DNA from: a virus
DNA length: 39,185 bases
Direction: 5' to 3' (one strand)
Virus genome (UHGV): UHGV-1491546
Positions 37,739 through 39,185 of this stretch are shown piece by piece (position 1 is the first letter of the stretch; each line of letters opens with the position of its first letter). The notes beneath the pieces are model-generated. The model saw only the letters and a program-made list of their open reading frames with translations, ran no database searches and was not told the origin of the DNA. Made by a program: the position numbers and the translations under genes.

Positions 37739-37752
37739 TAGTAAATATCGTG

Positions 37753-37810
37753 TGAGAAAAATTATCGCAAAGCATCTAAACATGTGAAGATGGTGAGATA
37801 CTTTGCGATA
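37753..37810 (-). terminator. hairpin terminator downstream of int (possibly bidirectional with tailspike)
   Basis: TATCGCAAAG (37763-37772) and CTTTGCGATA (37801-37810) form a 10-bp stem around a 28-nt loop, 4 nt after the int stop; T-run follows on the minus strand. Confidence 0.45.
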
Positions 37811-37814
37811 TCAA

Positions 37815-38969
37815 TTATTCATTTTCATCAAGCCAGTCCGCCCACCACTGCATCATTTCTCTGCGCTTGTCTAGATACTGAGCATGGTTATAAATCCCAC
37901 GCACAGATCCGCCGTTGGCGTGTGACAGTTGCACTTCAATAGCGTCAGCAGGCCATTCGTGCTCGTTCATAATCGTGCTGAATTCATGCCTGAATCCGTG
38001 ACCGCTTTCCAGACCCTCATAGCCGATTCGTTTGATCACAAGTAATACCGCGTTCTCGCAGATTGGCTTCTTCTTATCGTTGCGCCCGGCAAAAACAAAC
38101 TCTGATACTGGTTTGGTGATTGAGCTTAGCGTAGTGAGAAGTTCAACCACCTGGTCTGACATAGGAACAACATGAATCTTGCGGCCCTTCATCACACTGG
38201 CGTCGATAGTGATAATCCTGTTTTCAAAATCGACGTTCTTCCATTGCATTGAACGAAGCTCTTTCGTTCTTAGGGCTGTGTAGCGTAAAACTTTGGTCGC
38301 AATGAGCGATACGATGCTTCCTGAAAATGTTGCCAGTGCTTTGTTGAATGCAGGGATCTGGTCTGCAGGAAGAAACGGGAAGTTCTTCTTGCGGTATCCC
38401 TTCATGGCGTCAGCAAGGTCAGGTGCCGGGTTATATTTAGCCCTACCAGTGACAATAGCGTAACGGAAAACCTCGCCGCATCTTCTGCGTGCTTTGTTGG
38501 CTCGCTCCATTGCACCGCGATCTTCAAATCTGCGGATTACTTCCAGCAGTTGCATCGGCTCAATATCCTGAATTTCAAGGCCGCCGATGATGGGTAAAAT
38601 GTCGTCATCAAACATTTTGGCAAGTTCAGTTGCATAGCCTACTGACCAGACTTGCTTCTTGTGCTCGTACCATTCCTTGTAAATCGCACTAAAGGAATTG
38701 TTGTTAGACGAAGCCTTTTTCGCTTTTACCGGATCGATGCCAACCGAGATGTCTTTCCTCGCGGTCCATGCTTTATCCCTTGCCTCCTGCAAAGTCATAA
38801 GCGGATATTTTCCGACGGTCAGGATTTTCTCCTTACCGTCAATCTTGTAGCGAAGCTGCCATACCTTTTTCCCGGATACAGGAACATAAAGGTACAGGCC
38901 ATTACCATCGAGAAGGCGGTATGGTTTTTCTTTCGGCTTTGCTGCTTCAATCTGCTTAACGGTGAGCAT
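37815..38969 (-). CDS. int: tyrosine integrase, P4/IntS family
   Basis: From ATG 38967-38969: MLTVKQIEAAKPKEKPYRLLDGNGLYLYVPVSGKKVWQLRY... matches recalled E. coli IntS (argW-specific, P4-type); catalytic R..H..R..Y region present; track ORF starts at GTG 39005. Confidence 0.85.
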   Translation of the reverse strand: MLTVKQIEAAKPKEKPYRLLDGNGLYLYVPVSGKKVWQLRYKIDGKEKILTVGKYPLMTLQEARDKAWTARKDISVGIDPVKAKKASSNNNSFSAIYKEWYEHKKQVWSVGYATELAKMFDDDILPIIGGLEIQDIEPMQLLEVIRRFEDRGAMERANKARRRCGEVFRYAIVTGRAKYNPAPDLADAMKGYRKKNFPFLPADQIPAFNKALATFSGSIVSLIATKVLRYTALRTKELRSMQWKNVDFENRIITIDASVMKGRKIHVVPMSDQVVELLTTLSSITKPVSEFVFAGRNDKKKPICENAVLLVIKRIGYEGLESGHGFRHEFSTIMNEHEWPADAIEVQLSHANGGSVRGIYNHAQYLDKRREMMQWWADWLDENE

Positions 38970-39130
38970 GGGTAAAAATCCGGTGGGTAAAATTATTTTA
39001 TCCACTTTTTACCCGTCATGGAGTGCGGCTGTCAACGATCTGAAGCGAACCATGACGAACTGTGAATCTACGGAAGGCTTGATATTCAGGGGATTTTGCG
39101 GACTGGTACGGATGGGAGCGAACTGATAAA

Positions 39131-39185
39131 TGGTGTCCCCTGCAGGAATCGAACCTGCAATTAGCCCTTAGGAGGGGCTCGTTAT
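39131..39185 (-). tRNA. argW: tRNA-Arg(CCU) (argW-like), 3-prime 55 nt only; attachment core region
   Basis: Reverse complement ATAACGAGCCCCTCCTAAGGGCTAATTGCAGGTTCGATTCCTGCAGGGGACACCA shows anticodon loop CU-CCU-AA, T-arm GGTTCGATTCC and 3-prime CCA; 5-prime part beyond window end. Confidence 0.75.

Follow-up and report, generated by a model that had tools for sequence, protein, structure and literature searches.

A KplE1/HK620-type integrase module beside an argW fragment at the right end of a P22-like viral genome

Genes and tRNA fragment at the right end

We analyzed the right end of the UHGV virus genome UHGV-1491546, a single stretch of 39,185 nucleotides (hereafter the window), in which a tailspike gene, a short spacer, an integrase gene and a fragment of a tRNA gene lie in succession:

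35843–37738, plus strand: tailspike gene, from the open reading frame list, with a P22-type head-binding N-terminus (Pfam Head_binding, 4.8e-66)
37763–37810, minus strand: spacer hairpin found by folding, with a free energy of −22.6 to −23 kcal/mol (z −4.5 on the plus strand and −5.3 on the minus strand)
37815–38969, minus strand: intS-type tyrosine integrase gene, 384 amino acids, ATG start, called from identity with K-12 IntS and Pfam domains
39130–39145, minus strand: 16-bp att core CTGCAGGGGACACCAT, the last 15 nt of argW plus one T, to which the HK620 'attP core' maps
39146–39185, minus strand: argW nt 21–60, identical to K-12 argW, absent from phage attP and assigned to the host; the gene is cut at the window end

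The integrase shares 379/382 residues (99%) with Escherichia coli K-12 IntS and contains the Pfam domains Arm-DNA-bind_3, Phage_int_M and Phage_integrase. The tRNA sequence lies upstream of int in the same orientation, so that the integrase reads away from it, in agreement with the initial annotation. A mechanically generated list of open reading frames begins the integrase at GTG 39005 and ends it at 37815; the annotations of HK620, Sf6 and K-12 use an ATG equivalent to 38969. Because of this shared ATG, and because the transcription start mapped in K-12 falls at 39000/38999, downstream of GTG 39005, we set the int gene at 38969–37815. At the DNA level, int and the adjoining P′ arm are 96–98% identical to those of HK620, Sf6 and CUS-3 (Lederbergvirus; Clark et al. 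2001, Casjens et al. 2004, CP000711), the int genes of IME10, HK633 and others are in the same range, and matches of free-phage genomes to the int region end at window position 39145.

On the other side of int, the tailspike gene likely starts at an internal methionine (35843), compared with the mechanical start at 35786, and is called at 631 amino acids in near-identical metagenome contigs. An exact-protein look-up with the 650-amino-acid open reading frame returned no match, probably because gene callers use the internal methionine; the same look-up succeeded with the integrase protein and with the open reading frame at the left end of the window. The tailspike gene ends at 37738, and the 76-bp spacer to int (37739–37814) contains one strong hairpin and no att core, bearing out the earlier description of a spacer with a hairpin only. 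AAUUUUUCU follows the hairpin on the minus strand, and we therefore predict that it is likely the intrinsic terminator of the int transcript. HK620 has a terminator annotated at the equivalent position just 3′ of int; a simple terminator scan did not flag the hairpin at 37763–37810. An exact 61-mer spanning the tailspike end and spacer had no matches in GTDB species-representative genomes. Similarity to HK620, Sf6 and CUS-3 begins only at 37822, 5 nt inside the int 3′ end, and the spacer and tailspike body (region 37739–37821 of the window) belong to a different mosaic module that is common to E. coli JX2 and ETEC1738.

The tRNA fragment was identified with Rfam and by alignment to argW. Rfam reports a tRNA with its 5′ end cut off, and window positions 39131–39185 on the minus strand align to nt 21–75 of the E. 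coli K-12 argW tRNA-Arg(CCU) without a mismatch; the last 55 nt of the window are thus the 3′ 55 nt of an argW-like tRNA, as first proposed. The window contains a 28-mer of this fragment once, versus zero expected. ARAGORN called no tRNA in the window because the gene is truncated, and calls tRNA-Arg(cct) in near-identical contigs that run beyond the window end. We also considered whether the 55-nt length reflects an assembly break at k = 55 at the right end, and rejected this explanation since contigs L013, L015 and L016 read through.

The att core, the prophage boundary and the flanks

To place the boundary between phage and host, we aligned the right end of the window to attachment sites of related elements. 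The annotated HK620 'attP core' (1368–1383) corresponds to window positions 39130–39145, and Sf6 annotates the same site. From int through CTGCAGGGGACACCAT the HK620 and Sf6 attP sequences match the window, and both diverge completely at the 5′ edge of the core. Because of this divergence, we assign positions 39146–39185 to host argW and read the site as attL, not attP. The 245-nt attL region differs from the attL of K-12 CPS-53 at 2 positions, and the same 16-mer is the duplicated core of KplE1 (PMC2951348). By these alignments, 39130–39145 is the crossover region and the phage/host boundary, and the phage brings only 15 nt of tRNA plus one T. The right prophage boundary is thereby fixed, leaving 40 nt of host DNA at the window end. 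The initial annotation had taken all 55 nt as phage-borne tRNA homology, a reading that fails since only the 16-bp core is common with attP; its proposal that the window ends at a prophage junction or attP holds for the junction and not for attP. We consider it very probable that the right end is the attL of a P22-like (Lederbergvirus-type) prophage in the 3′ end of host argW, equipped with the recombination module of KplE1/CPS-53, HK620, Sf6 and CUS-3.

Contigs L013 and L015, from lysogens that are otherwise near-identical, read GGGGACACCAG at the equivalent of 39130 where the window ends in ACCAT. The variant falls on the last core position, the one outside the tRNA, and identity may be needed at the core over perhaps only 15 bp.

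The core occurs once in the window as an exact match, and a search for a second copy returned only a 3-mismatch chance match at 24263, so attR must lie outside the window; torI is likewise not within it. The window starts in the middle of an open reading frame of the early left operon, and metagenome contig L008, which is 100% identical to window positions 1–3493, reaches 1972 nt further left. This extension contains the rest of the left-end open reading frame, a 66-amino-acid gene 100% identical to K-12 TorI, two GGGTAAAAT repeats and the core, which lies at the equivalent of window positions −632 to −617 and implies a prophage of 39,762 bp (~39.8 kb). From this overlapping (3.5 kb) contig of another assembly we predict that the missing left end of the element comprises torI and attR, with attR ~620 nt, or ~0.6 kb, to the left of position 1, and the integration site can be named as argW. 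A related prophage in E. coli JX2 has the same tailspike-int junction and two core copies 39.2 kb apart, one beside torI and the other in argW, after which come host yfdC, mlaA, yfdF and fadL. The second att copy that the initial annotation proposed to look for is thus present at the other end of the relatives (JX2 and L008), which serve as proxies for this element, and a tRNA segment duplicated nowhere, the outcome that was to refute the proposal, is not what these relatives display.

On the right, contigs L013, L015 and L016 are 99.7–99.97% identical to the window end and run through the other 20 nt of argW into yfdC and mlaA. Judged from these near-identical contigs, what follows 39185 is the missing 20 nt of argW and then host yfdC/mlaA, and the model predicts ATCCATTTAACTAAGAGGAC (the complement of argW nt 1–20) on the plus strand beyond 39185 and then yfdC. 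A comparison of argW loci, also suggested at the outset, agrees: K-12, JX2 and the near-identical contigs share the argW insertion with yfdC on the host side. Of the two possibilities originally raised for the DNA past the window, host sequence is therefore upheld and lysogenic-conversion cargo is not. In relatives the cargo slot is on the 3′ side of int, where Sf6 carries oac, CUS-3 carries neuO and K-12 carries yfdGHI; here, as in HK620, the slot is empty and the 76-bp spacer is all that separates tailspike from int.

The same comparisons bear on a different reading of the window end, as the attP of a free or circularly permuted phage that carries at least 55 nt of argW, so that the whole tRNA fragment would be phage DNA. 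Long 3′ tRNA segments are common in tRNA-integrating phages, and the window stops inside the tRNA, so that what follows is not visible from the window alone. However, free-phage genomes with the module (HK620 and Sf6) share only the 16-bp core before they diverge, the attR arm in L008, 100% identical over the overlap, reads GTAGATGT beside the core and not tRNA sequence, near-identical contigs run into full argW and host genes, and window position 1 is not a continuation of the tRNA. We regard a free-phage attP as highly improbable and retain the attL assignment.

Two observations concern the left flank. Independent metagenome contigs L006 and L007 (99.97% and 99.96% identical) end exactly at window position 1, through which L008 reads; the window start probably marks an assembly break that recurs, or a mosaic boundary, inside the early-left open reading frame. 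Directly on the far side of the attR core, a further integrase gene points away from it (L008 4290–5465; JX2 8725–9900); the product is 31% identical to IntS and has a P4-family architecture. The JX2 copy is part of a P4-like satellite in which a P2-family capsid gene and Icd-like, DUF927 and ogr/delta genes are found. The argW site therefore carries tandem elements.

Putative TorI sites, integrase arm sites and int promoter

Between the core and int, we located three sets of regulatory features by homology with the KplE1 attL, with site assignments taken from Panis et al. 2010 (PMC2951348):

39123–39119, minus strand: putative TorI (excisionase) site I1, GTTCG
39103–39099, minus strand: putative TorI site I2, GTCCG, at 20-bp spacing from I1
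39060–39056, minus strand: putative TorI site I3, GTTCG
39050–39046, minus strand: putative TorI site I4, GTTCG
39040–39036, minus strand: putative TorI site I5, GATCG; I3 to I5 have 10-bp spacing and abut the −35 box
38999–39035, minus strand: predicted promoter PintS, with −35 TTGACA at 39035–39030, −10 TAAAAA at 39011–39006 and start at 39000/38999 by homology
39006–39014, minus strand: putative IntS arm-type (P′) site, GGGTAAAA followed by A or T, overlapping the −10 box
38985–38993, plus strand: putative IntS arm-type (P′) site of the same motif
38970–38978, plus strand: putative IntS arm-type (P′) site of the same motif

Read along the minus strand, the order is argW, the core, two TorI-type sites, a 38-nt gap, three TorI-type sites, the −35 box, the overlapping −10 box and IntS arm site, two further arm sites, intS, the terminator hairpin and the tailspike end.

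Repeats in this interval had been noticed before, and all are present where reported: CGAACTG at 39056–39062 and 39119–39125, and GCGAAC at 39045–39050. A direct 7-mer repeat alone is not above chance, as 40% of all 125-nt segments of the window have one. By comparison, the pentamer at the root of these repeats, CG[GA][AT]C, occurs five times in one orientation within 100 nt versus 0.24 expected (P about 6e-6). On the opposite strand CGAAC reads GTTCG, and the previously noted repeats make up three of the five TorI-type sites. These five sites, at 39036–39123, agree with the published coordinates within 1–2 nt, and I3, I4 and I5 are invariant in K-12, JX2, HK620, Sf6 and CUS-3. In the KplE1 attL, mutagenesis established GTTCG/GATCG/GTCCG as the TorI sites, five in total, laid out as a block of two sites 12 nt apart and a block of three sites 2 nt apart, and I4 and I5, which adjoin the −35 box, mediate TorI repression of intS (PMC2951348).

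The putative arm-type sites form a separate set. GGGTAAAA followed by A or T occurs four times in the whole window versus 0.61 expected, and three of the four copies lie at 38970–39014, a stretch that is identical to the K-12 attL and in which HK620 annotates attP repeats at the same positions. Published P′ arm sites share TAAA, and P′1 overlaps the −10 box (PMC2951348). A fourth copy of GGGTAAAAT lies within the int coding region (38592–38600, plus strand), and its HK620 equivalent (829–839) is an annotated attP repeat.

These assignments bear on the initial proposal that the CGAAC(TG) repeats are integrase arm-type sites, a reading favored by their direct repetition in an att arm and by their place between core and int. 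Substitution of GTTCG/GATCG/GTCCG by CAAGC abolished TorI-dependent repression, however, and the IntS arm-type sites are the separate TAAA-sharing set (PMC2951348); the GGGTAAAA repeats are over-represented near int and are also present beside torI on the other arm. We give the arm-site reading of CGAAC(TG) next to no credence and assign the pentamers to TorI and the GGGTAAAA repeats to IntS, so that the short repeats are now matched with the correct proteins.

The PintS sequence is identical to that of K-12, where the transcription start was mapped by primer extension. A consensus promoter scan of the window did not list the TTGACA/TAAAAA pair and flagged a weaker overlapping pair. IHF was used in the published in vitro reaction, and a search of attL with the IHF consensus (WATCAANNNNTTR) gave no perfect match. 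In the Klebsiella phage Chronis the int region is ~76% identical to the window; the five pentamers, both promoter boxes and the three arm sites are kept while the intervening spacers have diverged, a pattern of retention consistent with functional constraint.

The other attachment arm, which lies outside the window, contains an exact 16-mer, TTGCAGGTTCGATTCC, equal to argW nt 46–61, the segment that abuts the core (nt 61–75) in the tRNA. All E. coli members of the module have it, ~295 nt away from the core and a short way upstream of torI:

L008: 3802–3817
HK620: 1677–1692, inside the annotated cII-activated 'phage integration' promoter
Sf6: 4118–4133
K-12: 10276–10291

GTTCG serves both as the TorI recognition pentamer and as the sequence of the tRNA T-loop. 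One possible account is an ancestral attP with an identity block of at least 31 nt that was later split by the torI cassette, with tRNA-derived sequence co-opted as regulatory or RDF-binding DNA. We consider this unlikely; Klebsiella phage Chronis lacks the 16-mer, and that speaks against an ancestral origin.

Related modules and the proposed mode of recombination

We compared the module with known systems and found that the integrase, core, promoter layout, five TorI sites and arm sites of the KplE1/HK620-type argW module all have counterparts in the window. The closest is KplE1 (CPS-53) of E. coli K-12 (Panis et al. 2007, 2010; PMC2951348, PMC3509656), with which the window shares, beyond the 99% identical IntS and the attL differing at 2/245 nt, the same core, the five TorI sites, arm sites, promoter, argW insertion site and yfdC on the host side. 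In KplE1 the module sits in a 10-kb remnant that has yfdGHI 3′ of intS, whereas the window belongs to an apparently complete P22-like prophage of ~39.8 kb with no conversion genes. HK620, Sf6 and CUS-3 have a P22-like architecture in common with the window and differ from it in the tailspike body and spacer; Sf6 oac and CUS-3 neuO lie between tailspike and int. The HK620 and Sf6 records annotate the attP core upstream of int, inside hkaB/gene 17, with the torI homologue hkaC/gene 18 on the other arm, and thus display attP where the window displays the integrated form, attL.

The attachment site had been described as P4-type, with att upstream of int, and this arrangement stands: the core is 5′ of int here and in HK620 and Sf6, and PMC2951348 draws the parallel with P4, in which att is likewise upstream of int and the int promoter overlaps att. 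In both P4 and modules of the present type, integrase and RDF each down-regulate int (PMC2951348), and the window integrase has the P4-like Arm-DNA-bind_3 (DUF4102) architecture. In contrast, P4 targets leuX and has Vis as its RDF, for which an action on int mRNA is proposed; TorI instead binds DNA (PMC2951348). The target here is argW and the predicted RDF is TorI, and the P4-family integrase in L008 is only 31% identical to IntS. The label P4-type fits the way of working, and the element is not filed as a P4-type member.

The contrast with P22 drawn in the initial annotation is also borne out, as the P22 attP is annotated 3′ of int, between gtrA and int. In P22 the xis gene overlaps the int 5′ end in one operon, whereas here att lies on the 5′ side of int, the RDF gene is predicted to be carried by the other arm, and the spacer 3′ of int is a 76-bp hairpin region without an att core, unlike the P22/lambda-type layout. 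Likeness to P22 lies in the virion genes, an immI region with sar RNA, a tyrosine recombinase integrase and a tRNA gene target.

The anatomy described above is seen in the window, and a mechanism can be carried over from experiments on near-identical sequence in K-12 and HK620, which documented TorI-dependent excision and negative autoregulation of int (PMC2951348, PMC3509656). By analogy, IntS would act as a heterobivalent tyrosine recombinase whose C-terminal domain cuts and exchanges strands in the core while its N-terminal domain binds the GGGTAAAA arm sites. In the phage, attP would lie between torI and int, and integration would split it so that int and the RDF gene come to lie at opposite prophage ends, with the phage-borne 15 nt of tRNA expected to rebuild an intact argW. 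Integration would also sever int from the early-left transcript, leaving it to be made only from the weak PintS inside attL, where repression of the promoter may come from IntS at the arm site that covers the −10 box and from TorI at the sites adjoining the −35 box. Excision would then be triggered by TorI synthesis and not, as happens in lambda and P22, by joint transcription of xis and int. Modules of this kind are a textbook alternative to the lambda scheme: int and the RDF gene occupy opposite prophage ends, and int regulates itself through attL.

The attL-int module could also be a relic in a decayed, non-excising remnant like CPS-53, given that in K-12 the same module sits in a defective prophage of 10 kb. 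Against this reading, the P22-like gene set of the window looks complete and covers the early-left, immunity, replication, lysis, terminase, portal, coat, ejection, immI and tailspike regions, int is full length, every binding site is intact in sequence, and KplE1 itself still excises (PMC2951348). We judge decay to be quite improbable.

A query spanning int to argW had matches of at least 80% coverage in 1863 of 5426 complete E. coli genomes (about a third), and all of the matches listed for this query are annotated with intS and tRNA-Arg. The junction is standard, well characterized and already known, and this copy adds nothing new to the picture of the module.

Two RNA motifs elsewhere in the window were noted. 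The Rfam int-alpA motif at 16200–16266 (plus strand; 43.7 bits versus a gathering score of 35.8) lies between a Q-like antiterminator gene (15211–15834) and a holin gene (from 16863), and is a late-operon leader, not an integrase-adjacent element. The sar antisense RNA at 34773–34840 (minus strand; 92.8 bits) lies in the P22-type immI region (mnt/arc/ant), just upstream of the tailspike gene.
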